Position numbers and translations under genes: made by a program. The notes beneath the pieces were generated by a model. That model was not told the origin of the DNA, did no database searches, and saw only the letters and a program-made list of their open reading frames with translations. A stretch of DNA of 64,000 nucleotides. Origin: Planctomycetota bacterium (GTDB lineage: Bacteria; Planctomycetota; SZUA-567; H5-PLA8). Position 1 is the stretch's first letter, and each line of letters starts with the position of its first letter. The stretch covers positions 128,001 through 192,000 of the forward strand of contig JBBRPR010000005.1 of the NCBI GenBank assembly GCA_038227875.1, written 5' to 3'. Shown here one piece after another: positions 9,742-38,852 of the stretch.

Positions 9742-12700
9742 GTGAAAACCATGCTCGCCGTCCTCTCCTTGGTCCTTTCCATCGGCGCAGCCCATGCCGC
9801 TCAGTTGGAGATTGATCTGCCGCTGGCGCGCCACGCCTACCAGACCAATGAACAGATTTACCTGGCGGTTGTCCGCTCCGATGCCAACGCGCTCAGCGCC
9901 GGCAATCTCACGCTGACGATCACCACCACCGACGGCAGCAAGATGCTCTTCGACTTCCCCGTCAAAGCCGCTCCGGTCGCCGGAAAAGACGCGCGCTGCG
10001 TCGAACACGTGCTGCTCAACGGCTGGCTGCTGCGTCCCGGAAATTACAAAGTCGAAGCCGCCTGCGACGGCACCACCGCGGTGGCGGGCTTTGAAGTCTT
10101 CAGCCACATTCGCAAGAGCAGCTTTATCCTGGCCGATTGGGGCAATCACGCGGCGAAAAACCAGCAGGTGCTGTTGGGTGAAGACAGCGTCGGCTTCAAT
10201 CTCAATCTCGCCGGTTACGGCGGCATCATCCCCGATGAAATGATCCAGGCCGGCACCGATTTCATGCGCTGCTGTACGATGGGCGGCGCGCATCAGATGG
10301 ACATGCGCCATGAATGCGACTGGTCCGATCCGTACGTGCTCCACGGCAGCGAAGCCCGCGTCGTCCGTGAGGCGATGCAGGACCGCACTTCCGGCAACTG
10401 CATGGGCGTCCACTTCTACGACGAACCCGGCCTGACCTGGTGGAAGAATCCGAAGACCGACACCTTTGTACCCGACAACATTCCCGCGCAGGACCGCTCG
10501 TTCTTCAATGCGTTCGGCAAACCGTGCATTCAGTATCAGGATGTCAAACCCAACGACCCGGCCAGCGTTGCCCAGTGGAAGTTCCTCGGCAACTGGAAGC
10601 TCTCCTTCATGGATGCCGCGTGGAAGTACAGCGCCTTCGGCGTCAGCGACGTGAAGTCCGACTTCCTCTCCGTCACGCAAAGCGTCTACGGCTGGAGTTC
10701 CTACTGCGACGGCTATTACTTTCCGATCACGCGCTCGCTGCCGGTGATCAGCGGCCACGGCGGCTACGACGACCTGGGCTCCGGCTACATGTTTCCGTCG
10801 TTCACTTTCGAATTCGGCCGCATGCGCGAACTCAACAAGCCCAACTGGTACCTGCCGGTCTGGTACCTGGGCACCAACAGCGACCATTTCCGCTGTGAGC
10901 AGTACCTCTCCTTCATGAACAATCTTCAAGGCATGATGACCCCGCCGGATCACCGCGTCCATACGCCGTCAGCCGACCCCAATGGCATTGACGGCATCGT
11001 TGAGTCGAACAAGCTTTTCGCGCGGCTGGGCACGATCTTCACCACCATGCCCGTGACGCGCCCGCCGGCGGCCGTGCTCTACTCGATGTCGCACAATCTT
11101 CACGCGCAGTCGCAGGACCTGATCAAGAATCCCGCCAACAACTTCGGCAACCACATGAACGCACTGCAATCCATCTACCTGGCCAGCAAGCTCAACCAGA
11201 CGCCGGTCTTCCCCATCGTCGATGAGGACATCCTCGACGGCACGCTCGCCGCGAACCACAAAGCCGTGATCCTCGGCGGCATCGACTTTCTCGACCCGAA
11301 GGTCATCGCGACGCTGGAGACCTATGCGGCCGACGGCGGACTGGTGCTGCTCACCGACGATTGCAAGGTGACCATCAAGGGCAGCACCAAGCTGGGCATC
11401 CCTGTCGACTACGCCCTCTACGACGCAATCAACAAGGCGTACACCGAAAAGAATATGCCCGAAGTCTGGCGCTTGGACGTCGTGCCCAACTACTTCAAGA
11501 GCTGCGCCGGGCTGGCGACGGCGTTGAAGGCCAAGCTGGGAGCCGCCGGCATTCAGCCGGTCTTCGAAACCGAAAGCGCCACGCTCGCGGCCTCGCGCCA
11601 GGCGCTGGGCGATGTGGAGTACGACTTCGCCGTCAACATCACGCCCGATCCGACCCGCCTTGGCAAGAACAACCTCAAGCCGCTGACCGCCAGCATCGGA
11701 CTGCCCGGCGACGACCGCCCGATCTACGACGCGATCACGGGCGGACCCGCCACACAGTTCGCCAAAAAGGGCGCGACGCTCTCAGCCGACTTCCGATTCG
11801 GCCCCGGCGAGATGCGCGTCTTCGCGCGCACCGCGCGGCCCATCGGCAGCGTGCAAGTCATGCCGCCGGTCGTCTACAAGGACTACACGCTCCAGAAGAA
11901 TCCCATTCGCCTCGACCTGACCGCGATGGTCGCCGACACCAAGGGGCGCATCCTTTCCGGCTCAATTCCCCTGCAGATTCGCGTCACCGATCCGCTCGGC
12001 GCCGTGCGCTTCGAACTCTTCCGTGCCACCGATAGGGGCACCTGCCACGTCGAACTGCCGCTGGCCGTGAACGACGCCAACGGTCAGTGGACGGTGACCG
12101 TGCGCGAGCTGCTGGCCAACACCGAAGACACGGCGACCTTCGCCTACGGCACGCCCAAGAGCTGCGGCGCATTGGCCGGCGCAATTCCGCGCGCCACCTA
12201 CTTCAGCGACGACCGTTCGCACATCTTCAAGTTCTTCCGCACACACCGAATGGTCACCATTGTCGCCGGCTCGAGTTCCTACGACCGAGCCGCGGCCGAA
12301 CGGATCAGCGCCAGCCTCAAGCCCTGGGACGTGACGTCGACCATCGTCGACGCGGCGGACGTCAGCAAGCCCCGCACGCTCACGGAAGAGGAAGCGAAAT
12401 CCTGGACCGGCATGATGGGCGGCACGAAAAAGCCCGCGGACGCCAATCTCCGCAACGTCGGCTTCGCGCTGCAGGGACCGGCGATCCTGGTCGGCACACC
12501 GGATGACAATCCGATGATCAAGTTCGCGCAGGACGAACATTTTCTGCCGTACGTGGCTGACAAAGTGAACTTCCCCGGCGCCGGCCGCGGTTACCTGGCC
12601 TGGCAGCGCGACGCCATCGGCTATGGGCAGGAATCGCTGACCGTCATCGCCTTCGATGCAGAGGGCATGGACGAAGCCGCCGGCACGCTCTACGAAGCGG

Positions 12701-14154
12701 CGGCCGGCATCGATCCGGTAATGGCGCTTAACATTCCGTTGACCAGCACCGTCTCACCGGCATCGCAGTACGAAAAAATTCCCGCGCTGAAAGCCGCCTG
12801 GCGCACCGCGCTGCCCGACAACGCGGCCAGTCACAAGCTGCTGGCCGACGGCAGCCTGTTGGTGCTCACCAAGGACGGCTCGCTGACGAAACTGGACGCC
12901 GCCGGAAAGTCTGCGTGGTCCAAGGGCTTCGACGGCGCTGAAAAGTGGACGCTCGATGCCGCCGCCGATGGCAGCCTGATCGTCGTCGGCGCGTCACAGC
13001 ATCTGCTGGGCTTTGATGCCAGCGGCAAGCAACTCTTTGACACGCCCTTCACGTTCCACGAACCCGGTCGCGAGGGAACTCCCGTCTCGCCGTGCGTGTT
13101 CGTGGCCATCTCTCCCGACAAGAGCCAGATTGCCGCATCCGCCCTGAACGGCCATCTGATGATGTTCGACACGCAAGGCAAACAGAAGTGGACCGTCGGC
13201 GGCGTGACCGACGAGGAGTTCGCCAAGTGGCAAGCCGACACGAAGGAATGGGAATCCGGCATCGACAAGCGCGCCAAGGAGCAGGCTGAATTCAAGCCTA
13301 TCAACGATGCGTTCAAGCTCACGCAGAAAGCCTGGGACGATGGCGCGAAGGAACGCGAAGCGAAGACCAACGAGTTCAAAAAAGCGCATGATAAATGGGC
13401 CCGCGACGTGAAGGCATGGGAGAAGACCAAGGATGGCGAGAAGCCGGTTGAACCGGCCGCGCCCGTGCTGCCGCCCAAGCCGGAAGCGCCGAAGGGTCCG
13501 CCCAATCCGCCGCGCCCCCAGCAGCCCAAGCCGATGCCGTTCAATTCGGGTTTCTTCACCACCGACGGCAAGGCGCTGATCTGCGTCGTCGACAACGGTT
13601 TCGTCGCCGTCGATACGGAAAAAGGAACTGTTGGCGCCAAGCAGGGTGGATTTAAAGTCGGCACGCCGTTCTTCAAACATGGCGACGACATCGTGATGAC
13701 CGACGGCCAGTCGAAAGTCTCGCTCTTCTCTCTCGCCGCGAATAAAGTCACCAAGCAACTGGCGCTGACGTGGGCCGACATCGACCCGAAGACCAACAAG
13801 CCGCGCCAGAATCCCATCGGCGTCTATTCCATGGTTCCCAACGGAGATGGCCTATTGATCGCCGGTGAAGTCGATTCCACCGTCTACGCCGTAAAGTCGC
13901 TGGAAGGCGAGCAAGCGCAGGCCGTGACGTGGCAGTACAAGGACCCGCGCCGCCTGGTGAAGTACATCACCGTCGCCAACAACCTCGCCGCCGTCGTTTA
14001 CTTCGGCGGCTGGATGACGGTGCTTGACGCGACGACCGGCGCGCCGAAGTACGCCCAGAATCTCGGCCAGGACGCCACCTTCGCCGAGTGGAGCGGCGCG
14101 GCCCTGCTGGTCGGCACCGCCGACGGACGTATCACCGCACTATCGGAGAAGTGA
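9742..14154 (+). CDS. Large secreted multidomain protein (putative glycoside-hydrolase-like barrel, trimerisation-like domain, Ig-like domain, C-terminal beta-propeller)
   Basis: Signal peptide ending AAHA-A; FYDEPG motif; AVLYS...HKAVILGG segment; C-terminal WD/PQQ-like repeats; strongly coding codon usage. Confidence 0.75.
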   Translation: MKTMLAVLSLVLSIGAAHAAQLEIDLPLARHAYQTNEQIYLAVVRSDANALSAGNLTLTITTTDGSKMLFDFPVKAAPVAGKDARCVEHVLLNGWLLRPGNYKVEAACDGTTAVAGFEVFSHIRKSSFILADWGNHAAKNQQVLLGEDSVGFNLNLAGYGGIIPDEMIQAGTDFMRCCTMGGAHQMDMRHECDWSDPYVLHGSEARVVREAMQDRTSGNCMGVHFYDEPGLTWWKNPKTDTFVPDNIPAQDRSFFNAFGKPCIQYQDVKPNDPASVAQWKFLGNWKLSFMDAAWKYSAFGVSDVKSDFLSVTQSVYGWSSYCDGYYFPITRSLPVISGHGGYDDLGSGYMFPSFTFEFGRMRELNKPNWYLPVWYLGTNSDHFRCEQYLSFMNNLQGMMTPPDHRVHTPSADPNGIDGIVESNKLFARLGTIFTTMPVTRPPAAVLYSMSHNLHAQSQDLIKNPANNFGNHMNALQSIYLASKLNQTPVFPIVDEDILDGTLAANHKAVILGGIDFLDPKVIATLETYAADGGLVLLTDDCKVTIKGSTKLGIPVDYALYDAINKAYTEKNMPEVWRLDVVPNYFKSCAGLATALKAKLGAAGIQPVFETESATLAASRQALGDVEYDFAVNITPDPTRLGKNNLKPLTASIGLPGDDRPIYDAITGGPATQFAKKGATLSADFRFGPGEMRVFARTARPIGSVQVMPPVVYKDYTLQKNPIRLDLTAMVADTKGRILSGSIPLQIRVTDPLGAVRFELFRATDRGTCHVELPLAVNDANGQWTVTVRELLANTEDTATFAYGTPKSCGALAGAIPRATYFSDDRSHIFKFFRTHRMVTIVAGSSSYDRAAAERISASLKPWDVTSTIVDAADVSKPRTLTEEEAKSWTGMMGGTKKPADANLRNVGFALQGPAILVGTPDDNPMIKFAQDEHFLPYVADKVNFPGAGRGYLAWQRDAIGYGQESLTVIAFDAEGMDEAAGTLYEAAAGIDPVMALNIPLTSTVSPASQYEKIPALKAAWRTALPDNAASHKLLADGSLLVLTKDGSLTKLDAAGKSAWSKGFDGAEKWTLDAAADGSLIVVGASQHLLGFDASGKQLFDTPFTFHEPGREGTPVSPCVFVAISPDKSQIAASALNGHLMMFDTQGKQKWTVGGVTDEEFAKWQADTKEWESGIDKRAKEQAEFKPINDAFKLTQKAWDDGAKEREAKTNEFKKAHDKWARDVKAWEKTKDGEKPVEPAAPVLPPKPEAPKGPPNPPRPQQPKPMPFNSGFFTTDGKALICVVDNGFVAVDTEKGTVGAKQGGFKVGTPFFKHGDDIVMTDGQSKVSLFSLAANKVTKQLALTWADIDPKTNKPRQNPIGVYSMVPNGDGLLIAGEVDSTVYAVKSLEGEQAQAVTWQYKDPRRLVKYITVANNLAAVVYFGGWMTVLDATTGAPKYAQNLGQDATFAEWSGAALLVGTADGRITALSEK

Positions 14155-19171: not shown

Positions 19172-20128
19172 GTGATGCGCTCGTCGCCTGAAACCGTGGT
19201 CTGTTACGACGTGAATTCCAGTGCGCCGCTGCGCTGTACGTCCTGCGGCGTGCGCGATCCGCAGGGACCGTTCGCGCAGCCGCGGCGCATCCTTCCCGAC
19301 TTCGTCGCATTCCTGGTGGTGCGTGGCGAGATTTTTCTGACCGATTTCATGCCCAACGGCGACGAATCGGTGCGCGTGGGGCCCGGCGAAATTCACATCA
19401 TCGCGCCGGGACTGCCTCAGGCCAGCACCGTGCCCTTCGCCGCGGGGATCAAATTTCTCTGGTTCCATTTCAACTTCAACACCGAGTACCGGCTCTGCGT
19501 GCGCCACGAGGCCGCCGCGATCGTCAATTCTTTCCACGCGCCGAATTCCGAAGCCAAGTCCGCGCCCACTTCCGCACGCCGGCCGCAGCGGAGCTGGCTG
19601 ATTCCCCGCCACTTGGCGCTGGGGCAGGATCTCCACGCGCTGACGGCGATGCACTCCGAACTCGACGACAACATCAAGCTCTGGGGCGTCGACGATCCCG
19701 GCAGCCGCGACATCTGCGCACACATGGTCTATGCGCTGCACCGCTGTTTCGCGCAGGAGATCCTGCGCAGCAACAGCCTTGGCCGCACCGCGCCGGAGCT
19801 CGCGCACGTCGGCCGGGCGCGCAACTTTATCCGCCTGAATTTCGCGAAGCAGATTTCGCTGGCCGAAGTCGCCGACGCGCTTTCGCTCAATCCGTCCTAC
19901 CTGAGCCGCTGTTTCAAGCGCGTGACCGGCGAGACGGTCGTGGAATTTCTGATGAAGACGCGCATCGACGCCGCGAAGTCGCTGCTGACCACGGGCGACC
20001 ACGTCCCGCCGATCAAGGAAGTCGCGTACACAAGCGGGTTCAACTCCGCCGCGTACTTTTGCCGCGTCTTCCGGCGCTGCGAACGGACGACGCCGCTGGA
20101 TTTTGCGAAAGCCGTGCGGCCGGACTGA
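19172..20128 (+). CDS. AraC family transcriptional regulator
   Basis: Cupin N-terminus ending WFHF; HTH SYLSRCFKRVTG...IKEVAYTSGFNSAAYFCRVF. Confidence 0.93.
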   Translation: MMRSSPETVVCYDVNSSAPLRCTSCGVRDPQGPFAQPRRILPDFVAFLVVRGEIFLTDFMPNGDESVRVGPGEIHIIAPGLPQASTVPFAAGIKFLWFHFNFNTEYRLCVRHEAAAIVNSFHAPNSEAKSAPTSARRPQRSWLIPRHLALGQDLHALTAMHSELDDNIKLWGVDDPGSRDICAHMVYALHRCFAQEILRSNSLGRTAPELAHVGRARNFIRLNFAKQISLAEVADALSLNPSYLSRCFKRVTGETVVEFLMKTRIDAAKSLLTTGDHVPPIKEVAYTSGFNSAAYFCRVFRRCERTTPLDFAKAVRPD

Positions 20129-20200
20129 CATGCGAATCCCGTCGCATCGCGCGACTCGTATCCATCCGTTCACAGTCGAATATTAACCGCCGGTGCCGAG

Positions 20201-20216
20201 TGGCCCCGACTTTGCA
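20201..20216 (+). promoter_or_regulatory. Sigma54-type -24/-12 promoter upstream of the giant glycosyltransferase gene
   Basis: TGGCCCCGACTTTGCA, GG-N10-GC with canonical TTGCA. Confidence 0.6.
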
Positions 20217-20295
20217 ACTCTGCCATCCTAAAGTTCCAAGCTGTAAATTTTGCCGATGGCAGTGCACGCAAAATCGATGGGGGAGACTACTGGTT

Positions 20296-23200
20296 ATGGA
20301 CACGAACACCGTTGGCTATTGGCTGCACGAACCGGGTAAGTTAAGCCGGGGCGCAGTGTTAGACGTCGGGCTGAAGTGCATGCATTCGTGCAAATTCTGT
20401 TACTACAGCTACCTCGACAAGTCCGCCGACCAGTTCGGCGGGATGCGCAAGGCCGACTTCCGGACCGTCGACCAGTGTAAGCAGATTTTGCAGTCGCTGA
20501 AGGCACAAGGCTTTAAAAATTTCGACTACACCGGCGGCGAGCCGGCGCTCCATCCGGACATCATTGAGTTGACCCGCTTTGCTCATAACGACCTCGGGTT
20601 GGTCGGACGCATGATCACGCTCGGGCAGTACCTGATGCGCAAGATGCCCAACTGCCAGTCGCCACGGCTGATCGATGATTTGCTGGGCGCGGGCATCGTC
20701 AATTTCCTCTTTTCGCTGCATGCCGTGGAGGAGGAGTTGTTTCACCGCATCAGCGGCGAGTCGTTCGAAAAATTGCGCTCCGCCATGGAGTATCTCGACA
20801 GCAAAAACTTTCAGTACACGACAAATACGACGGTTTTTGAATGGAATTACCGCCACCTGCCCGACATCGCGCGGGAAGTGGTGAAGCACAACATTTACTT
20901 CCACAATTTCATCATCATGAATGCCTACCATGAATGGAACAAGGACGGCCGCGCGTACGGCGTGCGCGCGAAGTACGCGGACATTCATCCGTACCTGCAG
21001 GAAGCGGTGAACATTCTGGAGAGCGCGAAAGTCGGCGTGAACATTCGCTACGCGCCGCTGTGCGCGGTGAAGGGCATGGAGCGGAATCTCGTCGGCGTCG
21101 TGGGCGTGCGTTACGATCCGTATGAATGGATGAACGTCGGCGGGCACACGGGCGGACCGCCGGAACTGTGCGCCTCGCAGATTCCGATTCAGCAGGGCGG
21201 CGTGGAAGCGTACGTGGCGTACCGGCCAGAGACGGCGAAGCTGCCGAACGGATTGCAACTGTCCGGCGTGCGCGGGAATTTCTTCAAGTGCTTTCCCGAG
21301 AACTGCAAGAGCTGCGCGTCGCGGGATGCGTGCGACGGCATCGATCATCAGTACCTGGGCGCGATGGATCCGGCGGAGTTCAAACCGTACCGCACCGGCG
21401 GCGGCTTTCCGCTGCACCCGGCGCGGCTGGCGTACAAGCCGGCGTACGTTGTGAAGTCGGCGCAATTCACGGATATGAAAACGCTGATCGCCGACGCGTT
21501 CGAGCAGATGAACAACCCGGCGCTGGCGAAGACGGCTGCGAGCGCGACGGAGCTGGTGCGTTGGAAGGAAGGCGACATCACGTTGTTGCGTACGCCGGAG
21601 TTTGCCAATCGCGAGCGCGTGAAAGTGTCGGTGATCATTCCCTGCTACAACTACGCGCGATTTCTGCCCGACGCAGTGGGCAGCGTGCTGCGGCAGACGT
21701 TCGACGATTACGAGATCATCATCGTCAACGATGGGAGCACGGATCATTCGAAGGAACTCGCGGTGAAATTGCTGAGCGAGAATCCGGCGCGGCCGATGCT
21801 GCTGATCGACCAGCCCAACGCGGGGCAGCCGGCGATTTCGCGCAACAACGGCATCCGCCGCGCGCGCGGTGAATACATTTTGTGCCTCGACGCCGACGAC
21901 CTGATCGAACCGACGATGCTTTCGGAATGTGCGGCGGCACTGGACGCGAATAAGAATGTGGGCGTCGCGTACACGGACCGCTGCGATTTCAACAACGACA
22001 ACCCGTCGGATCAGAAAATCTACAAGGCCGAGCCCTATAACCTGCACCGGCTGCGGACGGCGTGCCACATCTGGTGCTGTTCGATGTTCCGCAAGACGGC
22101 GTGGGAGAAAGTCGGCGGCTACCGCACGAATGTGCGAGGGATGGAGGACTGGGATTTCTGGATCGCCTGCGGCGCGAAGGGTGTTTACGGGCACTACATT
22201 CCAAAACCGCTCTTCGATTACCGTCTGCACGGCGAGAGCCTGTTCACGGAAGTGAAGAAGAATTTCCAGGCGAAGATGGCGCAGGTGTTCCTGAACAATG
22301 CGGAACTGTACACGCCGGAAGAACTGGCCTGGGCGCGCGGTCTGCTGGGGCAGGCGGCGCCGGCTCCCTCGACGTCGCCGAGCTTCGATCCGAAGACGTC
22401 GACGGTGCTGCTCTTCACCGACGATCCGACGACGTACGGCACGGCGCAGTACAACCACATGCTGCTGTGCGAACTGCACAAGCATTGGGGAAAAGTGGTC
22501 TGCGTGCAGAGCCGCGCGGAAAATACAATGGTGAAAGAGCGCGTGGCGCTGGGGATTGAACATCAATTCCTGGAGTACGACACGGTCAACAATTTCTCGA
22601 AGACGGTGACCGATACCGAGACGGCACAGCGCATTTTCTCAGCGGTGAAGCCGGCGTTGATCATCTTCAGCGACTGCTGTCCGTTCTCGAGCTTCGCCGG
22701 AAAGCACACGGCGATGGCGATGAAGATTCCGATCGTCACCGTTGTGCACTGCACCGCGCCGTACCTCGCCAAGAATCTGCCGCAGCTGCTGGAGCCGCTG
22801 AAAGTTCAGTATGCGTATGCGCGGAGCGTGATCACGGTTTCCAACGCGAGCTTGAAACTGCTGCATCAGCATTACGGATTGGCGGCGAACAAAGGTGTCG
22901 CGATTTACAACGGGCGTCCGCATCGCTACTTTGCGGCGATTGATCTGGCGGCGCGCGAGAATCTGCGGAAGGCGCATGGGATTCCCGATCAGGCGGTCGT
23001 CTGCCTGACCACGGCGCGGCTGGAAAAAGCGAAGGGTTATCAACATCTGCTGCCGGTGATGGAGCGACTGAAGACGGAGAAGGACTGGTCGAAGCTCTAC
23101 TTCGTCTGGGCCGGCAAGGGGCCGCTGGAGGAGATTCTGCGGCGCGAATTGAAGGCGCGCGGCGTGCTCGACCATGTGCGCATGATCGGTGAGTGCGAGA

Positions 23201-25479
23201 ACGTGCCGGAATGGCTGTCGGCGTCGGACATCTTGATTCATCCGTCGCATTTCGAGACGATTTCGCTATCGGTGCTGGAAGCGATGGCGCGCGGACTGGC
23301 GGTGGCGGCATCGAGCGTCGGGGGAGTGCCGGAGGCGCTGGGCAGCACGGGCAAGTTGCTGGCGGACCCCACGCAGGACGAAGGCAAATTCACGCTCGAA
23401 CTGACCGAGACGCTGCTGAGCTGGACGCGTGACGCGAAGCTGCGCATGGAGACGGGCGCGCAGAGCCGCAAGCGCGCGGTCGAGATGTTTACCGAGCAGC
23501 GGATGCTGCGCGACACGCTGGCGGTGCTGGACGCGGCGCTGAAAAATCCCGCAGCGAAGGCACCTGACACGGCGAAGCCGACGGGGATGAGCGACGCGAC
23601 GGCGAAAGCGACCAGTGAGATTGAACAGGCGCGGAGCACGTGGCAGTCGTGCCGCAACTTTGCGAAGATGTGGGAGACGGCCCCGCCGGAAAAACTGCAG
23701 GAGATGTTCCAGGGCAACCACGGCGACATCTTCCGGCGCATCCAGGGGTCGGGTATCAAGAACATGCCGCTGGACGCAACCGACCGCATGACGCTGACGC
23801 GGCTGTCGGCGGAGATCGCAACCAACCCGCGCCATCCGACGGTGATCGGAAAATTGATCGCGTGCATGCTGCTGGGCCAGCCTCATCACATGAATGTGCC
23901 GTGCGAGATCTTCCCGATTCCCGACTGGCTGATCGACGATTTCACGCGCCATCTGTTTCCGCGCGATTATCCGTTCTACGACGTGGGCGAGGCGGATGCG
24001 TACCGAAATTGCATCACGCGCTGGGTGGATTATTTCCACGAGAAGATCAACGCCGAATCGAGCCTCTATTGGCGGAAAGTCGCGCTGCATTTCAAATTCA
24101 TCAACTCGTTCATGCGGCTGTATTTCACGGCGGCGAACCTGAAGTCGCTGTCGGTCAAGATGGCGGCGATCTGCGAACAGGCGATGCGCTACGAAGGCTG
24201 CGCCATTGACTGGACGCCGCCGAAGCCTGAACCCGGTGCGCGATTGCGGCTGGGTATCGTCTGCCAGGACTTCGGGCCGCGCACGGAGACGTTCACGACG
24301 CTGCCGTGCTTCGAGCACCTCGATCGCTCGAAATTCGAGATCTTCGCGTACGCCGTCGGCACCGGCGAGTGGGAGACGGAGAAGCGGGTCAGATCCCTAG
24401 TCGACCATTTCACCGTGCTGCCAAAAGTCGAACGCGAGCAGGTCAGCTCGATCCGCAACGACAATCTCGATTGCCTGATCATCGGCACGAATTGTTCGGC
24501 AGTGCTGAACACGCCGCGATTCCTGGCGTTCCATCGGCTGGCGCGCGTGCAGGTCGTGAATAACTCGACGCCGGTGAGCACGGGCATCCGCAACGTGGAC
24601 TATTATCTGTCCGGCACGCTGAACGAACCGGAAAAGGGCGCGGACGATCATTACAGCGAGAAGTTGCTGAAGCTTGAAGGCCCCGTCCACTGCTTCAATT
24701 ACACGGCCGATACGGGCGCGCCGACCGTGGCGTTGACGCGCGCGATGCTGGGCGGCGGCAACGGGGAAACGCTGTTTGTCTCGGGCGCGAACTTCTACAA
24801 GATCGTGCCGGAGATCCGCCACACGTGGGCGCGGATCCTGGCGGCGGTGCCGAATTCGAAGCTGGTGCTCTATCCGTTTAATCTGAATTGGGCGAATGCG
24901 TACCCAACGTCGGTATTCGTCGACGCGGTGCGCGCGGTCTTCGCGAAGTACGGCGTCGACGGCGGGAGGAGGCTAACGATCTGCAACACGCTGCCGGCGC
25001 GCGCGGACATTCACAGTCTGCTGAAGAATTGCGACGTGTACCTGGATTCGTATCCGTTCACGGGCGTTAATTCGACGTTCGACCCGCTGAGCGTCAACGT
25101 GCCGCCGGTGGTGCGGCGCGGCGAAAATTTCCGCTCGATGATGGCCTCGTCGCTGTTGCGCGACCTGAATCTGCCGGAACTGGTCGCGGACACGGAAGAG
25201 GACTACATCCGCCTGGCCGTCGAGTTGGGCTCGCAGCCGGAGCGTCGCGAAATGCTGCGCACCAGGATCCAAGCCAGCTTCTCAGCTTCGCCGCGTTTCC
25301 TCGATACGGTGCAATACGGCCAGCAGATGAACGAGCTGCTGCAGCGAATCTGCACGGAAACGGGAGCTCCTCCGGGGATCGCGGTGACGCCGGGCAGTTA
25401 CAAAGTCATTGGACCGAATGCCCCCTGCCCGTGTTCCAGCGGCCGGAAGTATAAACGCTGTTGCGGCGCATCGGTTTGA
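20296..25479 (+). CDS. Multidomain fusion: radical SAM + GT2 + GT4 + GT41-like glycosyltransferase + SEC-C motif
   Basis: CMHSCKFC and GGEP; CKSCASRDACDG; VSVIIPCYN...NDGSTD...LDADD...EDWD; ETISLSVLEAMARG; RLARVQV...SGANFYKI...DVYLDSYPF; PNAPCPCSSGRKYKRCCG; GGGAG RBS before ATG 20296. Confidence 0.9.
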   Translation: MDTNTVGYWLHEPGKLSRGAVLDVGLKCMHSCKFCYYSYLDKSADQFGGMRKADFRTVDQCKQILQSLKAQGFKNFDYTGGEPALHPDIIELTRFAHNDLGLVGRMITLGQYLMRKMPNCQSPRLIDDLLGAGIVNFLFSLHAVEEELFHRISGESFEKLRSAMEYLDSKNFQYTTNTTVFEWNYRHLPDIAREVVKHNIYFHNFIIMNAYHEWNKDGRAYGVRAKYADIHPYLQEAVNILESAKVGVNIRYAPLCAVKGMERNLVGVVGVRYDPYEWMNVGGHTGGPPELCASQIPIQQGGVEAYVAYRPETAKLPNGLQLSGVRGNFFKCFPENCKSCASRDACDGIDHQYLGAMDPAEFKPYRTGGGFPLHPARLAYKPAYVVKSAQFTDMKTLIADAFEQMNNPALAKTAASATELVRWKEGDITLLRTPEFANRERVKVSVIIPCYNYARFLPDAVGSVLRQTFDDYEIIIVNDGSTDHSKELAVKLLSENPARPMLLIDQPNAGQPAISRNNGIRRARGEYILCLDADDLIEPTMLSECAAALDANKNVGVAYTDRCDFNNDNPSDQKIYKAEPYNLHRLRTACHIWCCSMFRKTAWEKVGGYRTNVRGMEDWDFWIACGAKGVYGHYIPKPLFDYRLHGESLFTEVKKNFQAKMAQVFLNNAELYTPEELAWARGLLGQAAPAPSTSPSFDPKTSTVLLFTDDPTTYGTAQYNHMLLCELHKHWGKVVCVQSRAENTMVKERVALGIEHQFLEYDTVNNFSKTVTDTETAQRIFSAVKPALIIFSDCCPFSSFAGKHTAMAMKIPIVTVVHCTAPYLAKNLPQLLEPLKVQYAYARSVITVSNASLKLLHQHYGLAANKGVAIYNGRPHRYFAAIDLAARENLRKAHGIPDQAVVCLTTARLEKAKGYQHLLPVMERLKTEKDWSKLYFVWAGKGPLEEILRRELKARGVLDHVRMIGECENVPEWLSASDILIHPSHFETISLSVLEAMARGLAVAASSVGGVPEALGSTGKLLADPTQDEGKFTLELTETLLSWTRDAKLRMETGAQSRKRAVEMFTEQRMLRDTLAVLDAALKNPAAKAPDTAKPTGMSDATAKATSEIEQARSTWQSCRNFAKMWETAPPEKLQEMFQGNHGDIFRRIQGSGIKNMPLDATDRMTLTRLSAEIATNPRHPTVIGKLIACMLLGQPHHMNVPCEIFPIPDWLIDDFTRHLFPRDYPFYDVGEADAYRNCITRWVDYFHEKINAESSLYWRKVALHFKFINSFMRLYFTAANLKSLSVKMAAICEQAMRYEGCAIDWTPPKPEPGARLRLGIVCQDFGPRTETFTTLPCFEHLDRSKFEIFAYAVGTGEWETEKRVRSLVDHFTVLPKVEREQVSSIRNDNLDCLIIGTNCSAVLNTPRFLAFHRLARVQVVNNSTPVSTGIRNVDYYLSGTLNEPEKGADDHYSEKLLKLEGPVHCFNYTADTGAPTVALTRAMLGGGNGETLFVSGANFYKIVPEIRHTWARILAAVPNSKLVLYPFNLNWANAYPTSVFVDAVRAVFAKYGVDGGRRLTICNTLPARADIHSLLKNCDVYLDSYPFTGVNSTFDPLSVNVPPVVRRGENFRSMMASSLLRDLNLPELVADTEEDYIRLAVELGSQPERREMLRTRIQASFSASPRFLDTVQYGQQMNELLQRICTETGAPPGIAVTPGSYKVIGPNAPCPCSSGRKYKRCCGASV

Positions 25480-25508
25480 CCGGGCCATTCAAGATTCAAA
25501 AAGGCACG

Positions 25509-25530
25509 CGGTAGAGGGACCTCTCTACCG
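25509..25530. repeat. GTAG...CTAC hairpin (REP-like or terminator)
   Basis: CGGTAGAGG-GACC-TCTCTACCG between convergent genes. Confidence 0.45.
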
Positions 25531-25660
25531 TGTTGCGTAATTGGCGAGTTCTGCGTATTGTCCGTTTGTATTATTTTGGTTGGAAGTTTCAGCGCAGGTA
25601 TACGAATTATCAACTTTGGGAATATTATCAATATTGAGAATAATAAATTCGGGAGACCAA

Positions 25661-26098
25661 TTAATGCCAATATATTGTTTCGTCGCGCTCTTTAAAGTGG
25701 AGCAGTGAGTGCAGGATACGATTGAGTACTTCACAAATAATTAAGCCTAAAACCAGAGCGCTCGCCAGTGCTGCGCCGTTGAGCAGGGCGTGATGCGCGT
25801 CGAAGTTGAGCGGGACTGAGGTCTCTTCGACGACTTCGGTGTCCGAATGTCCGATGTTCTTTCCGCGGCTGTCGAAGAAGCCTTCGCCAGGCTCGTACCG
25901 GAATTTGGTCGCACCGGTCATCATGGCGTAGGGCCAGCCACGCTCGGATTTGACGTCGCCGACGCCGCTATTGCCGCGCATTACGATGAACGTATATTGT
26001 TGGCAATTTGCGACAATAAAGCAGAGCGACAGGACGCCGAGAATTATCCCGGTTGAGGTGTGGAGTTGATACCAGCGGTCTTTTCTCTCGTCGCCCAT
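25661..26098 (-). CDS. Small membrane protein with 'QLhxST...N...GWP' module
   Basis: Two hydrophobic helices; motif shared with 31247..31780; lies in an AT-richer segment. Confidence 0.65.
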   Translation of the reverse strand: MGDERKDRWYQLHTSTGIILGVLSLCFIVANCQQYTFIVMRGNSGVGDVKSERGWPYAMMTGATKFRYEPGEGFFDSRGKNIGHSDTEVVEETSVPLNFDAHHALLNGAALASALVLGLIICEVLNRILHSLLHFKERDETIYWH

Positions 26099-26322
26099 AG
26101 CGAAATATCTATTCGCAATTAACAAACCAATTTACGAAGAAACAAAATGCAACAAATTTCCGAATCGGAAGGTTATTTCCGAGACTCAGATTGCAGTTTG
26201 CAACCCCGCAGTTTCGTCTGGCAGTTTCGGCCAAATAAAAGGGACTGCTGGATAGTCGCTCGATTTTGAGATATAAAGAGTAGTGACGGTGGCAGGTTGC
26301 AATTAACTCCTGAGGGAGCGCG

Positions 26323-27571: not shown

Positions 27572-28333
27572 TTAGTTCGCGCTGATGCGCTTCTGCACGT
27601 ATTCGGAATACTCTTCGCGCATGGGCAGTTCCTGGTCGCGCTTGATGCGGCGGCGCGTCGTGGTAACGGCTGCGCCGGTTTGCGGATTTAACGAGTCCTT
27701 CTGGTACTCTTCCCAATACAGCCCAATGCCGCGCTTCTGCCAGTTGGGGACGTCATTGAAGTTGAGCCCGTATTGAAAGAGCAGCTCGTTCTTCTCAGCG
27801 ACGGACATGCCATTGAGTTTCTCCGTCGCCGCGCGGACGCTCAGATTTTCCCTGCGCAGACGCCAGTAGCAGTGGGCGCTCAGCGCGTTGCGGTGCGCGT
27901 CTTCGTTGCGCCAGCGAAAGTAGTCCACGACCAGCGCTTCATTCGGGAACTGAGCGATGCGGCAGTCGAAGCACGCGTGGGCGCCAAGCAACAACGAAAA
28001 CGCGGCGCTGGCTTCACCGGCAAGAATGGAATCGTACTTCCGCAACTTGCGGCCGAAGCCCTCCTCCGCGGGGTGGAAGAGCAGCGAGATTTCGTCGCTC
28101 TGCGTGTAACCATAGATCACGCGAAAGCCGCAGTTCATCAAGTGCTCGGTGGTCTGCGCCATCATATCGCGCATACGCGCGTCGAAGGGGCTTTCGAACT
28201 GGTGGACTTCCTTGGTCAGCCGCGTGAAGCTGCGTCCGTCTATGCGCGCGACCATGTACATGCCGGGCAGGACGCAGACGTCGCCAGCCGTCTCATAGAC
28301 GCGCATTTTTGAATCCAGATCGTCAAATTTCAT
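27572..28333 (-). CDS. tRNA(His) guanylyltransferase Thg1-like protein (3'-5' RNA polymerase family)
   Basis: ARIDGRSFTRLT, YTQSDEISL, FDCR, DYFRWR; ATG 28333 after GGAGG. Confidence 0.93.
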   Translation of the reverse strand: MKFDDLDSKMRVYETAGDVCVLPGMYMVARIDGRSFTRLTKEVHQFESPFDARMRDMMAQTTEHLMNCGFRVIYGYTQSDEISLLFHPAEEGFGRKLRKYDSILAGEASAAFSLLLGAHACFDCRIAQFPNEALVVDYFRWRNEDAHRNALSAHCYWRLRRENLSVRAATEKLNGMSVAEKNELLFQYGLNFNDVPNWQKRGIGLYWEEYQKDSLNPQTGAAVTTTRRRIKRDQELPMREEYSEYVQKRISAN

Positions 28334-28784
28334 GCCTCCACTCCTCAACGATAAACGTGTGTTCGTTTCCTTTTTGCCGTTCCATTCGGACGTAGTACAG
28401 CGTGTCGAAACCTTCACTCAGCGCCGGACGCGTCAGGCGGCCGTATACGCCAAGCACGCCTTTCTCGGGTACCTGCTGCTCCGGCGGGCGCATTGCGTTG
28501 CGCGCCAGACTCTCGTGAATTTTGGACTCGAAGTAATAGCCCACAACGCGAAAACCCGCCGGACGAGCCAGTGCGATGTACTTGGCGCGCTGCTCGGAAC
28601 TGACATTGGTGTTATCGATGACGAATGGTTGCTTAGCGCTGATGCAGGCGGCCAGCAACAGGTCCTCGCGATGCCGTGTGCGCAGCATGTCGAGGTTGAT
28701 GCGGATGTGCGTGTTGAAAAACCGCTCGGCAAAGAACGTGGACTTGCCCGTGGCTTGAATGCCAACGAAGAGGATTGCTTCCAT
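28323..28784 (-). CDS. P-loop kinase (AAA_33 / polynucleotide-kinase-like)
   Basis: GIQATGKST, INLD, VIDNTN...R, RNAMR lid; stop overlaps the Thg1-like start. Confidence 0.85.
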   Translation of the reverse strand: MEAILFVGIQATGKSTFFAERFFNTHIRINLDMLRTRHREDLLLAACISAKQPFVIDNTNVSSEQRAKYIALARPAGFRVVGYYFESKIHESLARNAMRPPEQQVPEKGVLGVYGRLTRPALSEGFDTLYYVRMERQKGNEHTFIVEEWRHEI

Positions 28785-30243: not shown

Positions 30244-30334
30244 TGGAATGCAACCTAACTGACACAGGTCCCATTTCCTCTCCTCACTCTATTTCACGTT
30301 GCCAAAACCGTCCATATCGGGGAGAGTCCAGTTT

Positions 30335-31237
30335 ATGTCTAATCGGCTCATTCACGCACCGCACGCCTTTCGCCCCACGGAACAGATTTCGGCGCACATT
30401 GATTTTCTGCGCATGCGGTTGCTGGGGTTTGCACAGATGCGGCTGGCGTCGTGGGATGTCCGGCCGATGCTCAGTCCATTCTGGCGGTTGTATTGCAATC
30501 TCGACGATGGCGCAGTGGTGACATCCGACGCGCGGCGCATTCCATTGCGGGCGCGGCGCGTGTACCTGGTTCCGGCGTGGGTGTGGTGGAGCGGACAGTC
30601 GCGGCCGGGTGTGCGGCATATTTTTGCGCATTTTGATCTGCCGGGGATGACCTGTTCGCTCAGCCGCGCGGCGTTTCCGCTGCCGCTGCAGATCTATCCG
30701 CGACCTTCGGAACGGCGTGAACGCGCGGCGATCGATCTTGTCGCGCAATTTGAAGCGCTGGGCGCGGAGTTTCTGAAATCGGGGGTATTCGATCCGCATT
30801 TTATTTCATGGGCAAAGGGATTGATTTACTTTGCGCTGCGTGATGCGTTCGCGCAGGTCGAGCCGGAGATCCGCGCGCGCTGTTTGCAGCCAGGCACGGG
30901 CACGCATCCGCTGGTGCGCGTGTTGAATTTGATCGATACGAATCTGCATCAGGAATTGCAGAACGATGTGCTGGCCGACGCGGTGCCGTGCAGCCGCGCG
31001 CATCTGGTGCGGCTTTTCCGCGCGCTGCTGGGCGTGGCGCCGGCACGGTACATCACCGAACGTCGTATCAGCCGTGCGGCGGAGTTGCTCGTGTATGGCC
31101 ACGACAGCCTGGAGCAGATCGCCGAGGCGTGCGGCTTCCCCAACCGGCATTATTTTACGCGCGTGTTCACGCAGGTGCTGGGGACGTCGCCGGCGCGGTA
31201 TCGGAAAATCCTGTTGAACGCGGGGCGGACGCGATAG
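30335..31237 (+). CDS. AraC family transcriptional regulator
   Basis: SPFWRLY cupin; SLEQIAEACGFPNRHYFTRVF HTH; GGGAG RBS. Confidence 0.93.
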   Translation: MSNRLIHAPHAFRPTEQISAHIDFLRMRLLGFAQMRLASWDVRPMLSPFWRLYCNLDDGAVVTSDARRIPLRARRVYLVPAWVWWSGQSRPGVRHIFAHFDLPGMTCSLSRAAFPLPLQIYPRPSERRERAAIDLVAQFEALGAEFLKSGVFDPHFISWAKGLIYFALRDAFAQVEPEIRARCLQPGTGTHPLVRVLNLIDTNLHQELQNDVLADAVPCSRAHLVRLFRALLGVAPARYITERRISRAAELLVYGHDSLEQIAEACGFPNRHYFTRVFTQVLGTSPARYRKILLNAGRTR

Positions 31238-36989: not shown

Positions 36990-38852
36990 GTGGACACGGT
37001 CCAGACCGAACCTGACACCGATGCGCACTTACTACAACACTTCGTCGCTTCGCAGAGCGAAGACGCCTTCCACGCCATCGTCGCCCGCCACGCTAATAAG
37101 GTGTATTCGTGCTGCCTGCGCGTTTTGAACGACGTGCACGCCGCGGAAGACGCGACGCAGGCGGTCTTCCTCCTTTTGGCGCGCAAGGCGGCCAAGCTGC
37201 CGCCGGATACGGTGCTGGCGGGGTGGCTTTACCGCACGGCCAGTTGGACGGCGCTGGAAACGCGCCGCACACTGGCGATTCGCGGCCGGCATGAACATGC
37301 CGCCGCGGCGCAGACCGCGCGCAATCCGAAGTCCGGGCCGGACGACTCGGCCACTGAGAATCTCCGCGTACAACTCAGCGAACTGCTGGCGACCTTGCCG
37401 CCCGTGCAGCGCGACGCGATTGTGCTCCATTTTCTCGACGGGCGCACGGAGGTGGAGATTGCCGCGGAGCTGGGATGTCCAGCGAGCACCGTGGCCACGC
37501 GCATCGCGCGGGGTCTGGCGAAGCTGCGCGATGGTTTGCAGCGTCGCGGCTACACTCTGGCGGCGCCGTTCATTCCGTCGCTGCTGAGCCAACTGGCGAA
37601 AACGGCGGCGCCCGAAAGTCTGCTTAGCGCCATCCGGCTGACCGGGCCCGGGCACACCTCAGCGTCGTTGCGCGCGGTGGAATTCGCTGCGCACTCCACG
37701 CGGGCAGCTTCGCGCGTGACGCTGAAGACGGCTGTCACCGTGACGCTCGGTGCGATCGCATTTTTAGGAACGGCTGGCTACGTCGCGCATCGCGTTGCCA
37801 CGCCAGCGCCGCCATCCGCGTTGACCAGCGCGGCGTACAGCCCGGAGATCCGCGATCCGAAAATTCTGTGGGATGTCACGCTGGAGGGCAACACGCCCTC
37901 GCACCTGATCGCCAACGATCTCGTGCTTCTCTACATTCAAGGACAGGGCCAAGACACTGCGAAACAGTGGATCGAAGCGCGGCAGATCAGCGACGGCGCG
38001 AAAGTCTGGACGTCGTCGGCCGGCGGGACGCTCTGCGCAGTAACCAGCGACATCGTGATCTGCTCGTCCGGAGCGGATATTTTCGCGCTGAAGCTGTCCA
38101 CGGGCATCGAACGCTGGCGCTGGCACGGCAACGATACGCGCCGGCGCTCGCCAGTCGTCTACGACAACGGCGAAGTTTTCACCGTCGCGGCCAAATCCGA
38201 CGACCGCGAATGCAGCATCTGCTGTCTGGAAGCGACGACCGGCCGCACACTCTGGGAAGCGCCGGCGGCGGTGGGTCCGGTCAGCTCCGCACCGAGCGTC
38301 GATGGCGATCACGTCTATGTGGCCGGCGACAATGGTGTCGCGTGCGTCTCGCGCGCAGAGCAGCGCGTGCTCTGGTCGCAGACGGTCGCGGCGAAGATCG
38401 CGCCGTCGGCTTGCGGTGGCCGGGTGATCGTGCCGGGCCGCGAGATCACGTGCCTGAGCGCGGCCAATGGTGCATGGGCGTGGACGGTGCCCGGCCATCT
38501 CGACAACTCTTCACTGACGGCGACTCCGGATGCGCTCTACACCGGCCTGCAGCACAATGCTTCCGCTGAAGCACCGGCCGCGAACGTGTACGCCGCAATT
38601 CAGCCGCTCAGCGGAAAGATCCTGTGGGAGCGGACGTTCGCGGGCGAAGTTCACGCGGGCGCGGCGGTCACCAATCAGAGCGTCTACGTCACGTGCTGGG
38701 ACGACGCGCTGTACGCGCTCAACCGCTCCACCGGCGAGCAGCTCTGGCGCCTGCCCCTGACGCTCAACCGCTGGTCCCCCACCCCGCTAATGGCCGCCGA
38801 CCGGATGCTGGTCTGTTTTCAGAACAAAATCTACTGCATCGGCAATAAATAA
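36990..38852 (+). CDS. ECF sigma-70 factor fused to a TM helix and PQQ-like beta-propeller
   Basis: Region 2 AEDATQAVFLLLARKA...LAGWLY; region 4 EIAAELG...TVATRIARGLAKLR; TM; repeated TG...W blades. Confidence 0.9.
   Translation: MDTVQTEPDTDAHLLQHFVASQSEDAFHAIVARHANKVYSCCLRVLNDVHAAEDATQAVFLLLARKAAKLPPDTVLAGWLYRTASWTALETRRTLAIRGRHEHAAAAQTARNPKSGPDDSATENLRVQLSELLATLPPVQRDAIVLHFLDGRTEVEIAAELGCPASTVATRIARGLAKLRDGLQRRGYTLAAPFIPSLLSQLAKTAAPESLLSAIRLTGPGHTSASLRAVEFAAHSTRAASRVTLKTAVTVTLGAIAFLGTAGYVAHRVATPAPPSALTSAAYSPEIRDPKILWDVTLEGNTPSHLIANDLVLLYIQGQGQDTAKQWIEARQISDGAKVWTSSAGGTLCAVTSDIVICSSGADIFALKLSTGIERWRWHGNDTRRRSPVVYDNGEVFTVAAKSDDRECSICCLEATTGRTLWEAPAAVGPVSSAPSVDGDHVYVAGDNGVACVSRAEQRVLWSQTVAAKIAPSACGGRVIVPGREITCLSAANGAWAWTVPGHLDNSSLTATPDALYTGLQHNASAEAPAANVYAAIQPLSGKILWERTFAGEVHAGAAVTNQSVYVTCWDDALYALNRSTGEQLWRLPLTLNRWSPTPLMAADRMLVCFQNKIYCIGNK

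Follow-up and report, generated by a model that had tools for sequence, protein, structure and literature searches.

A single polypeptide joining radical SAM and glycosyltransferase domains in a Planctomycetota genome, a candidate system for building and tailoring a glycan

The gene and its continuity

We analysed a 64,000-nucleotide stretch of a Planctomycetota genome (assembly GCA_038227875.1, contig JBBRPR010000005.1, positions 128,001 to 192,000; hereafter the window), with attention to one gene that joins a radical S-adenosylmethionine (rSAM) domain, three glycosyltransferase (GT) domains and a SEC-C motif. A scan of the window for open reading frames (ORFs) found a single continuous plus-strand frame at 20059-25479 (1806 codons). 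Its likely start is the ATG at 20296, 9 nt 3′ of a GGGGAGA sequence, and alignments to homologues begin at residue 4; the product of 20296-25479 comprises 1727 amino acids plus the stop codon. No transmembrane segment or signal peptide was predicted in this protein (maximum 19-residue Kyte-Doolittle window, 1.39). Five Pfam domains (radical SAM, GT2, GT4, GT41 and SEC-C) were detected, all above their gathering cut-offs (Table 1), and the following motifs were located: C28xxxC32xxC35, GGEP at residues 80-83, C337xxC340x5C346, D532-A-D534, E987x7E995, DFGPRTET at 1325-1332 and CPCSSGRKYKRCC at 1711-1723. The five domains of the original prediction, SEC-C included, were thus recovered with coordinates right to within a few tens of bases; catalytic residues are not missing from most domains, and every motif that it named is intact. 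Judging from these motifs, four active domains are very probably combined in one real protein.

Table 1. Features of the fusion gene and its immediate surroundings (positions are those of the window; Pfam scores are given against the cut-off)
Feature	Window positions	Strand	Residues	Evidence or remark
AraC-family regulator gene	19172..20128	+		Pfam HTH_18 + HTH_AraC; ends 167 nt upstream
Whole fusion gene	20296..25479	+	1727 aa	predicted soluble
Radical SAM head	20296..21525	+	1-410	Pfam, alignment A1, model, fold matches
Radical_SAM (PF04055)			27-194	Pfam 65.5 bits vs 29.5
GT2 (GT-A) domain	21616..22335	+	441-680	D532-A-D534, E617-D618
Glycos_transf_2 (PF00535)			445-606	Pfam 111.8 bits vs 23.3
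Pro/Ser/Ala-rich linker, head module to GT4	22348..22401	+	685-702	P0009 homology stops at 690
GT4 (GT-B, retaining type) domain	22411..23550	+	706-1085	E987x7E995, GGVPE 1009-1013
Glyco_transf_4 + Glycos_transf_1 (PF00534/PF13439)			715-873 + 887-1059	Pfam 95.2 and 40.8 bits, above cut-off
Ala/Lys/Thr-rich linker	23545..23619	+	1084-1108	sequence
Conserved region before GT41	23644..24195	+	~1117-1300	no Pfam match
GT41-like catalytic domain, both lobes	24196..25365	+	~1301-1690	K1502, R1329, T-E1331-T
Glyco_transf_41 (PF13844)			two stretches, best 1480-1678	Pfam 85.1 bits vs 25
SEC-C zinc-finger motif (PF02810; C1711, C1713, C1722, C1723)	25417..25467	+	1708-1724	Pfam 29.3 bits vs 20.4
Hairpin, 8 pairs	25509..25530	.		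30 nt after stop codon, then AT-rich spacer

The hairpin that follows the stop codon is a probable transcription end, and the fusion gene therefore appears to be the last or sole gene of its transcription unit; the AraC-family gene upstream is a possible candidate for its regulator.

The genome is a draft (176 contigs, 9.3 Mb, 88% complete, 4% contamination), in which separate genes might have been joined falsely, and the architecture has no match in any other protein retrieved. Continuity was judged on assembled contigs. A separately assembled contig of run X1 (10,943 bases, even depth of 12.1) covers 20000-25700 with no differences and no gaps; X1 may be the source sample, in which case it stands for a second assembler and not a second sample. 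In run X2, from another study, pieces that are 98-99% identical cover the head at 20098-20747 and the tail at 22413-22903 and 23112-23303 (GT4 region), 23499-23738 (junction of GT4 and the following helical region) and 25026-25634 (C-terminus), whereas no contig outside X1 was found to bridge 20748-22412. The GC content at third codon positions (GC3) is 0.81-0.83 across all catalytic domains, the cosine between head and tail codon usage is 0.956, and the linkers between domains are in frame. Both types of junction also recur in many homologues. The rSAM-GT2 junction is unbroken in P0009 (Thiobacter aerophilum according to NCBI; residues 4-690, 57% identity), and GT2, GT4, the helical region and GT41 are contiguous in P0029 and P0003, with alignments spanning residue 442 to about 1694 (39% and 34% identity for P0029). 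Since the GT2 domain belongs to both sets of homologues, any false junction would need to lie within a domain whose identity between the two families is only about 50%. The uninterrupted frame of about 1727 residues that had been proposed for this gene is therefore borne out by the X1 contig, the uniform composition and the junctions in homologues.

The two modules and their relatives

The N-terminal part (residues 1-690, the head) is 57-64% identical to a widespread rSAM(+GT2) family that has no functional name in any source: its members are called only ‘radical SAM protein’, ‘glycosyltransferase’ or a generic COG name. They occur as stand-alone proteins of about 400 residues (for example in Desulfobacter, Desulfosarcina and Fundidesulfovibrio records), as rSAM-GT2 proteins of about 660 residues (Telmatospirillum, Magnetospirillum) and as an rSAM-GT2-methyltransferase protein of 823 residues (Nostoc), the rSAM domain being always fused or adjacent to the GT2 subfamily of the fusion protein. 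Among proteins under 949 residues, 158 relatives of the head were found, and the head profile matches all 120 that were listed; it is also present in 36 of 76 giants other than the fusion protein, at the very N-terminus (starting no later than residue 10) in 27 of the 36. None of 40 genomes from the same family, order or class, most of them incomplete, contained the head at E up to 1e-20 when searched with the fusion protein as query. An origin of the head in another lineage is therefore probable; in codon usage it is now native.

In an alignment of the fusion protein with 24 stand-alone family members (alignment A1), C28, C32, C35 and GGEP 80-83 are invariant in all 25 sequences. There are 45 invariant columns, seven of them Cys, and the fusion protein keeps all 45. 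The remaining four of these Cys (C256, C337, C340 and C346, where D-G comes after C346) would fit one auxiliary [4Fe-4S] cluster of the Twitch-like kind. Of the SPASM/Twitch character originally proposed, a Twitch-like form would fit these four Cys, while the full SPASM form, a seven-Cys motif for two auxiliary clusters, is not, PF13186 giving no match at E up to 0.1. The NCBIfam model N_Twi_rSAM reached 20.7 bits against a cut-off of 170, and structural alignment was obtained to the Twitch enzymes BlsE (residues 15-388) and SkfB (3-376).

An AlphaFold model of the head (predicted local distance difference test, pLDDT, 89.8; predicted template modelling score, pTM, 0.88) has the rSAM partial TIM barrel with a SPASM/Twitch-type extension. 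Fold comparison with Foldseek and VIA returned viperin (Z 20.4, 235 residues, root-mean-square deviation 2.9), SuiB (20.1, 300 residues), BlsE (19.2, 275 residues), GDGT-MAS (18.7), SkfB (18.7, 272 residues), MoaA (17.0) and anSME (16.8). The matches from viperin to BlsE and SkfB are tied within about 2 Z units, and so no single functional relative is singled out. Sequence matches of the head in the PDB were marginal (viperin-like 2e-4, BlsE 1e-3, MoaA 1e-3), no NCBIfam model came near its cut-off (best NirJ2, 51.9 bits against 500), and an Atlas search with the head returned generic radical SAM clusters only. BtrN, NeoN, BlsE and AprD4 are sugar-acting rSAM enzymes of SPASM/Twitch type; by analogy, candidate reactions for the head would be epimerisation, oxidation, decarboxylation or dehydration of a sugar.

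The GT2 domain carries D532-A-D534 (DxD) and E617-D618, which we take to be the GT2 family motifs. Its identities are 57% to P0009 (over 4-690), 39% to P0029 (from 442) and 48% to the first GT2 of P0003, and this subfamily, judged by alignment, is the hinge common to head-type and tail-type giants. The best PDB match was the second domain of K4 chondroitin polymerase (K4CP; 3e-30), followed by GalT1 (1e-18) and heparosan synthase (1e-14); for the GT4 domain the best matches were BshA (2jjm/3mbo, 9e-16) and MshA (2e-13). GT2 enzymes transfer hexosyl groups with inversion and GT4 enzymes with retention. A glucuronic-acid donor, considered in view of the K4CP match and a UDP-glucose dehydrogenase beside the giants of relatives, was unsupported: such genes were present at 1 of 54 head-family and 0 of 80 tail-family loci.

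The remainder of the catalytic part (GT4, helical region and GT41, residues 706-1690; the tail) is 34-41% identical to a common, unnamed GT41 sub-clade. A search with residues 1091-1727 against 1.84 billion representatives clustered at 50% identity gave 28,976 matches at an E-value limit of 1e-3; with the limit set to 1e-30, 1,442 representative clusters remained. The 150 best align over residues ~1120-1687 with identities of 28-44%; these proteins range from 441 to 3855 residues, and stand-alone forms measure about 600. For residues 1303-1666, both lobes could be aligned with TtOGT (5DJS, 2e-29), SPINDLY (7Y4I/8DTF, 2e-23) and XcOGT (2VSN, 2e-13); the alignment to human OGT covers the C-lobe. 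Comparison by hhalign with five canonical GT41 genes gave a probability of 100% (E 9e-54), confined to columns 215-602 of the tail alignment. K1502, which pairs with the Lys in the ‘LAKITP’ stretch of SPINDLY, is present without exception in 21 of 21 tail-clade sequences (alignment A2), and the fusion protein keeps all 24 invariants of the clade. In Synechococcus Ogt, K445, the equivalent nucleotide-binding Lys, is described as essential in PMC9306852. The likeness to SPINDLY and OGT that had been noted for this region therefore stands by PDB and hhalign matches, and the suggested kinship to HMW1C does not: the NCBIfam model NF049992 for HMW1C/N-glycosyltransferase (NGT) scored 44.6 bits against 1000, and HMW1C/NGT matches in the PDB covered about 85 residues (1e-6 to 7e-8). 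An assignment of residues 1110-1305 to HMW1C_N was likewise rejected, the Atlas score of 0.79 lying within the chance range and NGT far under the cut-off. On this sequence evidence the tail is a distinct, very large, unnamed GT41 sub-clade.

No tetratricopeptide repeat (TPR) was present in the tail among Pfam matches, and hhalign did not match residues ~1091-1302 to any part of the TPR region of canonical GT41 proteins. The region at ~1117-1300 instead always precedes the tail-type GT41 domain, and in the best 150 representatives it is conserved with the catalytic part mostly as one stretch (fragment 30-597); it is a candidate acceptor-binding domain.

The C-terminal 17 residues match SEC-C and the solved C-terminal peptides of SecA and YchJ, with the pattern C1711-P-C1713...C1722-C1723. 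Only three SEC-C motifs occur in the 9.3-Mb genome, in a 1131-residue frame of SecA size, in a 172-residue frame and in the fusion gene; SecB was not found in this 88% complete genome. In relatives of the same class (one genus, five complete genomes), three of three giants that combine GT4 and GT41 (1414, 1681 and 1977 residues; two additionally carry FkbM and class-I methyltransferase domains) end in CxCGSGLKYKKCCGK, while a fourth giant (RgpF + GT2 + GT41, 1291 residues) has no SEC-C tail. The motif is kept on GT41 giants across two families of the class, with an adjoining domain that is only 31-36% identical. Because it is present in these giants and absent from all 149 tail-family representatives and all 97 GT41 frames in the 80 metagenome loci, the SEC-C tag on GT41 giants is lineage-specific. 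In E. coli, the SEC-C motif is described as binding metal (zinc or iron), SecB and ribosomes (bioRxiv 10.1101/613315).

We compared the whole chain with a collection of 5.8 billion proteins in the range of 949-3023 residues, in which 8000 word-selected candidates were scored and 77 proteins, the fusion protein included, were retained. PF04055 and PF13844 occur together in the fusion protein only, and 8 others carry GT41. Nor was the rSAM head found in any of the 149 tail-family representatives or at any of the 80 metagenome loci, and none of four longer relatives (3024-5000 residues) combines the head with GT41. One of these, P0348 (3614 residues), has the rSAM head at its N-terminus (profile E 9e-182) with GT2, GT4, GT9 and TPR domains and carries neither GT41 nor SEC-C. 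P0349 (4433 residues; a protein of a Methylococcales metagenome-assembled genome according to NCBI), which lacks the head, consists of six canonical GT41 modules parted by TPR blocks. The five-domain architecture, which the original prediction could not place among characterised proteins, is accordingly unmatched as a one-chain combination among the proteins retrieved.

The same two modules are found side by side as separate genes. Nostoc loci L017 and L018 each have a GT2-helical-GT41 gene immediately after a head-type rSAM-GT2-methyltransferase gene (62-63% identity to the head of the fusion protein), the stop and start overlapping at 12478 in L017. The second gene matches positions 11-601 of the tail profile (E ~1e-251) and aligns with residues 1117-1691 of the fusion protein with 38% identity (E 1e-131), and the pair is followed by a canonical GT41 gene. 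In a FastTree phylogeny of 156 head domains, the fusion protein groups in a seven-member clade (support 83) with the Nostoc-type proteins and one other giant. A Sulfotelmatobacter record (L042) likewise has an rSAM-GT2 gene followed directly by a GT41 gene. Just upstream of the DXD-sugar-transferase-like, rSAM-GT2 and GT41 genes of that locus lies a gene for an ALTTAQ-repeat protein (L042:26-1423, Pfam PF20080, 1e-76), which may be a repeat-protein acceptor. By these comparisons, the architecture is best read as two common modules joined via the GT2 subfamily, not as five independent inventions, and the fusion gene as the fused form of a gene pair that is found split elsewhere. Because both modules are adjacent genes in Nostoc, the fusion marks a shared pathway, and we consider it probable that head and tail act in one.

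Gene neighbourhoods and the glycan acceptor

We collected 54 head-family loci from named genomes (median 19.7 kb) and 80 tail-family loci from metagenomes, 32 of them of at least 15 kb. A Maf-like gene is present at 11 of the head-family loci, a GT41 gene at 5 and a flagellin gene at 8 (7 by profile, plus L029 by Pfam), so that 23 loci have at least one of these; locus L014 also contains fliW and motB, and L022 a YcgR-type PilZ gene. A giant protein of 4074 residues (P0350) combines an MptE-like/Maf domain, several methyltransferases and a GT4 with the GT2 subfamily of the fusion protein (47% identity). At five Desulfovibrionales-type loci (L044:9818-16965, L040, L066, L036 and L060) we observed runs of 3-5 different rSAM genes, some B12-binding and some fused to TPRs, accompanied by a Maf-like gene, FkbM methyltransferases, epimerases and cytidylyltransferases, an arrangement that looks like an elaborate sugar-tailoring island. 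At the tail-family loci, a second GT41 gene of canonical type occurs in 16 of the 80, with a type IV pilin-like gene in 7 of these 16. Other company at tail-family loci includes an RTX-repeat protein (L141), a type I secretion pair (L139) and rhamnose and methyl-sugar genes (L086, L104, L119 and L141).

In the genome of the fusion gene, the sole other GT41 gene encodes a TPR-GT41-FkbM protein of 1111 residues (L071:9789-13121, which is G000:C22:99789-103121, plus strand). It ends the cluster flgF/G-flgA-flgH-flgI-flgK-flgL-fliW, directly after flgK, flgL and fliW, and from its domains and position is likely a flagellin glycosyltransferase with a built-in sugar methylase. In five of five complete genomes of the same class (G025, G027, G029, G030 and G038), a flagellin gene lies ~4.6-4.7 kb from a GT41 paralogue. 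These genomes (3.4-3.9 Mb) contain 12-14 flagellin-family matches each, many in frames of ~850-1,500 residues (giant flagellins). The recurrence of a canonical TPR GT41 with a tail-type giant would be consistent with one enzyme priming the glycan and the other elaborating it; the genome of the fusion gene holds both, unlinked. A Pilin_GH search of this genome gave no match, nor did the control match in any genome. Maf (MptE-like, PF01973) is absent from the fusion protein and was not found in the 88% complete genome.

Several published systems provide a frame for these observations. Flagellin glycosylation is described as cytoplasmic, independent of oligosaccharyltransferases and sequential in PMC7591256, and GT41 enzymes, nearly all fused to methyltransferases, as common in enterobacterial flagellin glycosylation islands in PMC4875605. 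Pilin glycosylation needs a GT41 enzyme in a cyanobacterium, according to PMC9306852.

We propose that the fusion protein may be a soluble cytoplasmic glycosylation line in a single chain, made of two fused modules, that would build an O-glycan on a secreted protein and tailor it by radical chemistry; we regard this reading as evenly poised. Module 1 would comprise an rSAM enzyme with one auxiliary iron-sulfur (Fe-S) cluster and the GT2 domain, and module 2 the GT4 domain, the conserved domain at ~1117-1300, the GT41-like GT-B domain and the SEC-C zinc tail. The GT41-like domain, aided by the domain before it, would engage the protein acceptor and either set the first sugar on Ser/Thr or extend a sugar placed by the canonical TPR-GT41-FkbM enzyme of the flagellar operon. 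The GT2 (inverting) and GT4 (retaining) domains would add further sugars from nucleotide-sugar donors, and the rSAM domain would tailor a sugar, either on the donor or on the nascent glycan. The original suggestion that the protein attaches, extends and radically tailors a glycan on a protein is thus backed in its domains, whose motifs are intact, while the protein acceptor, which we propose with moderate confidence from the gene neighbourhoods of relatives, comes from mixed neighbourhoods (23 of 54 head-family loci; 2 of 80 tail-family loci). A secreted filament or surface protein would be the likeliest acceptor, flagellin being the first candidate in the genome, although the specific assignment to flagellin is doubtful.

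A number of observations weigh against this proposal. Flagellin genes occur at 2 of the 80 tail-family loci and at none of the 32 loci of at least 15 kb, and Maf genes at none of the 80. With the tail clade so rarely near flagellin, the case for flagellin depends on the head family and the canonical GT41 paralogues, which are ~29% identical to the tail. The pilin-linked tail-family loci probably come from related cyanobacteria and are not independent, and many giants of the tail family carry domains of polysaccharide-synthesis type (RgpF, several GT2, rhamnose and methyl-sugar genes). The genome encodes two flagellins of 270 residues, and the flagellin gene on contig C37 has no glycosylation genes nearby, and Pfam analysis of the neighbours of the fusion gene found no acceptor, sugar-nucleotide, flagellar or further GT genes. 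No characterised member of either module family was found in our searches. The catalytic domain itself also departs from the canonical type. R1329 sits at the His column of SPINDLY and TtOGT, in the stretch that reads D-F-G-N-H in OGT; the column is variable across the tail clade, which keeps a T-E1331-T motif. The suspicion that DFGPRTET marks an unusual subfamily was thus correct, and extends to a whole sub-clade. The G-x-T-T phosphate-binding stretch of canonical GT41 reads G-V-N-S in the fusion protein, and because of this change and the Arg at the His column the GT41-like domain may act unlike OGT or SPINDLY.

The main rival is a non-protein glycan (an exopolysaccharide, an O-antigen-like chain, a glycolipid or a small-molecule glycoside), which the GT41-like domain would extend or initiate and the rSAM domain would tailor. 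Such a product would suit the giants of both families, which stack several GT2 and GT4 domains with TPRs and methyltransferases, one of them in a relative being the RgpF (rhamnan synthesis) + GT2 + GT41 protein described above, as well as the RmlC, C-methyltransferase, CmcI, TylF and FkbM genes at tail-family loci and the absence of a flagellin gene from 78 of the 80. It would also suit the closeness of the GT2 domain to the glycosaminoglycan polymerases K4CP and heparosan synthase, that of the GT4 domain to BshA and MshA, which act on small molecules, and the missing canonical His, which may mean a different acceptor. No export or polymerisation genes (Wzx/Wzy, Wzm/Wzt or synthase-type transmembrane domains) were found near the fusion gene, however, and the ABC ATPase beside the giants of relatives is importer-like rather than Wzt-like. 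We considered O-antigen-type export in relatives on account of this Wzt-sized protein of 432 residues and rejected it, its best PDB matches being the importer ATPases FbpC, LolD and AlgS and the adjacent permease being of the BPD_transp_2 family. Also counting against a non-protein glycan are the Maf, flagellin or GT41 genes at 23 of the 54 head-family loci and the canonical, protein-type GT41 partners at 16 of the 80 tail-family loci; moreover, all characterised GT41 members that we know of act on protein. On balance we consider a non-protein glycan possible but somewhat unlikely.

A variant of the protein-glycan proposal gives the SEC-C tail a role of its own: it would dock the enzyme on the ribosome or the Sec route, where nascent or unfolded secretory proteins would be glycosylated and the rSAM domain would edit the protein-attached sugar, for example by epimerisation or decarboxylation. 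To our knowledge neither a co-translational bacterial O-glycosylation line nor a radical sugar-editing step of this kind has been described, and we regard this version as quite unlikely.

Less probable still is a maturase of peptides that are made by the ribosome and modified after translation (RiPPs), in which the rSAM domain would modify a small ribosomal peptide and the GT domains would glycosylate it, as in glycocins or mycofactocin. The peptide maturases SuiB and SkfB are among the fold neighbours of the head, there are weak NCBIfam matches to PqqE, HxsC and the mycofactocin rSAM, and the GT2 domain weakly matches the MftF model. The nucleotide- and sugar-acting rSAM enzymes viperin and BlsE nevertheless score as high as the peptide enzymes, no plausible precursor ORF lies within ~850 nt downstream or 167 nt upstream (small ORFs there have a GC3 of 0.33-0.76 and no peptide-like features), Pfam shows neither a RiPP recognition element (RRE) nor a protease or exporter in the protein and the genes around it, and head-family genes are surrounded by sugar-pathway, Maf and flagellar genes rather than peptide clusters. 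An assembly or annotation artefact, that is, two or more genes joined by mis-assembly or lost stop codons in a metagenome-derived draft, is extremely improbable given the continuity, composition and junction evidence presented in the first section.

The neighbours of the fusion gene by Pfam are the AraC regulator, a DUF1275 gene, a Thg1-like gene, dehydrogenases and PhyH dioxygenases. Downstream of the fusion gene, a gap of 843 nt contains two AT-rich patches (25500-25800 and 26000-26300; GC 0.40-0.43 against 0.60 for the genome) and a minus-strand ORF of 154 residues (25661-26125) with low GC3 (0.63-0.64) and no Pfam match, which may not be a gene. The Thg1-like gene (27572-28417, minus strand; Thg1 and Thg1C domains) encodes a tRNA-His guanylyltransferase of a family that is uncommon in bacteria. 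Four AraC-family regulator genes lie within 42 kb (5154-6014, 19172-20128, 30299-31237 and 45903-46871), interspersed with PhyH dioxygenase, amidohydrolase and GFO/IDH/MocA oxidoreductase genes. Elsewhere in the window, a plus-strand gene at 36990-38852 encodes a protein of 620 residues in which a sigma factor of extracytoplasmic function (ECF) type (regions 2 and 4) is fused to a PQQ-like beta-propeller, and two giant plus-strand ORFs have only weak PQQ_2 and MG2 matches (9742-14154, 1470 residues) or no Pfam match at all (39065-43552, 1495 residues).

Comparison with known systems

All of the domain families have been described before, and multi-domain glycosyltransferase giants, although almost unstudied, are frequent in genome data. 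What is new is the union of rSAM and GT41 in one chain, the link that it makes between two large unnamed families, and the SEC-C tag; in the literature, subscription journals not covered, we found no description of an rSAM-GT fusion, of either family, or of SEC-C joined to a glycosyltransferase. As a Rosetta stone, the fusion ties a widespread unnamed rSAM family (54 genome loci, many phyla) to GT41-type glycosylation and to a large unnamed GT41 sub-clade (1,442 representative clusters), and the presence of SEC-C on a glycosyltransferase raises the question of the place and time at which the enzyme meets its acceptor. Should the glycan indeed be protein-bound, bacterial cytoplasmic protein glycosylation would include radical chemistry, and the gene would represent a compact, soluble, one-gene system for tailored O-glycans; if it is not, the gene would still be an entry point to two uncharacterised enzyme families, a less surprising outcome.

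Domain by domain, the protein resembles several characterised enzymes and differs from each. The head shares CxxxCxxC, GGEP, the partial TIM barrel and a C-terminal CxxCx5C auxiliary motif with sugar- and nucleotide-acting SPASM/Twitch rSAM enzymes (BlsE, 7VOB; viperin), but has its own Cys pattern (C256...C337xxC340x5C346), a GT2 fusion and marginal sequence likeness (E 1e-3 to 1e-4). Its GT2 domain is closest to K4CP residues 376-581 (2Z86), and both K4CP and heparosan synthase (8VH7) likewise carry several transferase domains per chain; the fusion protein, in contrast, has no second GT2 of that type, and its partners are GT4 and GT41. The tail is like the short GT41 enzymes (TtOGT 5DJS, SPINDLY, XcOGT and cyanobacterial Ogt) in both lobes, in the Lys column, in having no intervening domain and in being soluble and cytoplasmic. 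Unlike them, it has a different domain of ~190 residues in place of the TPRs, R1329 at the His column, T-E-T and G-V-N-S, and it sits in a multi-enzyme chain that ends in SEC-C. That motif has the Cys pattern and Pfam family of the SecA C-terminal metal-binding domain, YecA and YchJ, but here ends a glycosyltransferase. As a whole, the proposed line would most resemble flagellin O-glycosylation (FlmG of Caulobacter, compared by description only, Maf, and the enterobacterial GT41-methyltransferase fusions), which is likewise soluble and sequential, with a tailoring domain fused to GT41; it differs in that the fusion gene lies outside a flagellar or sugar locus and has no Maf domain, and in that the tailoring domain is an rSAM enzyme and not a methyltransferase.

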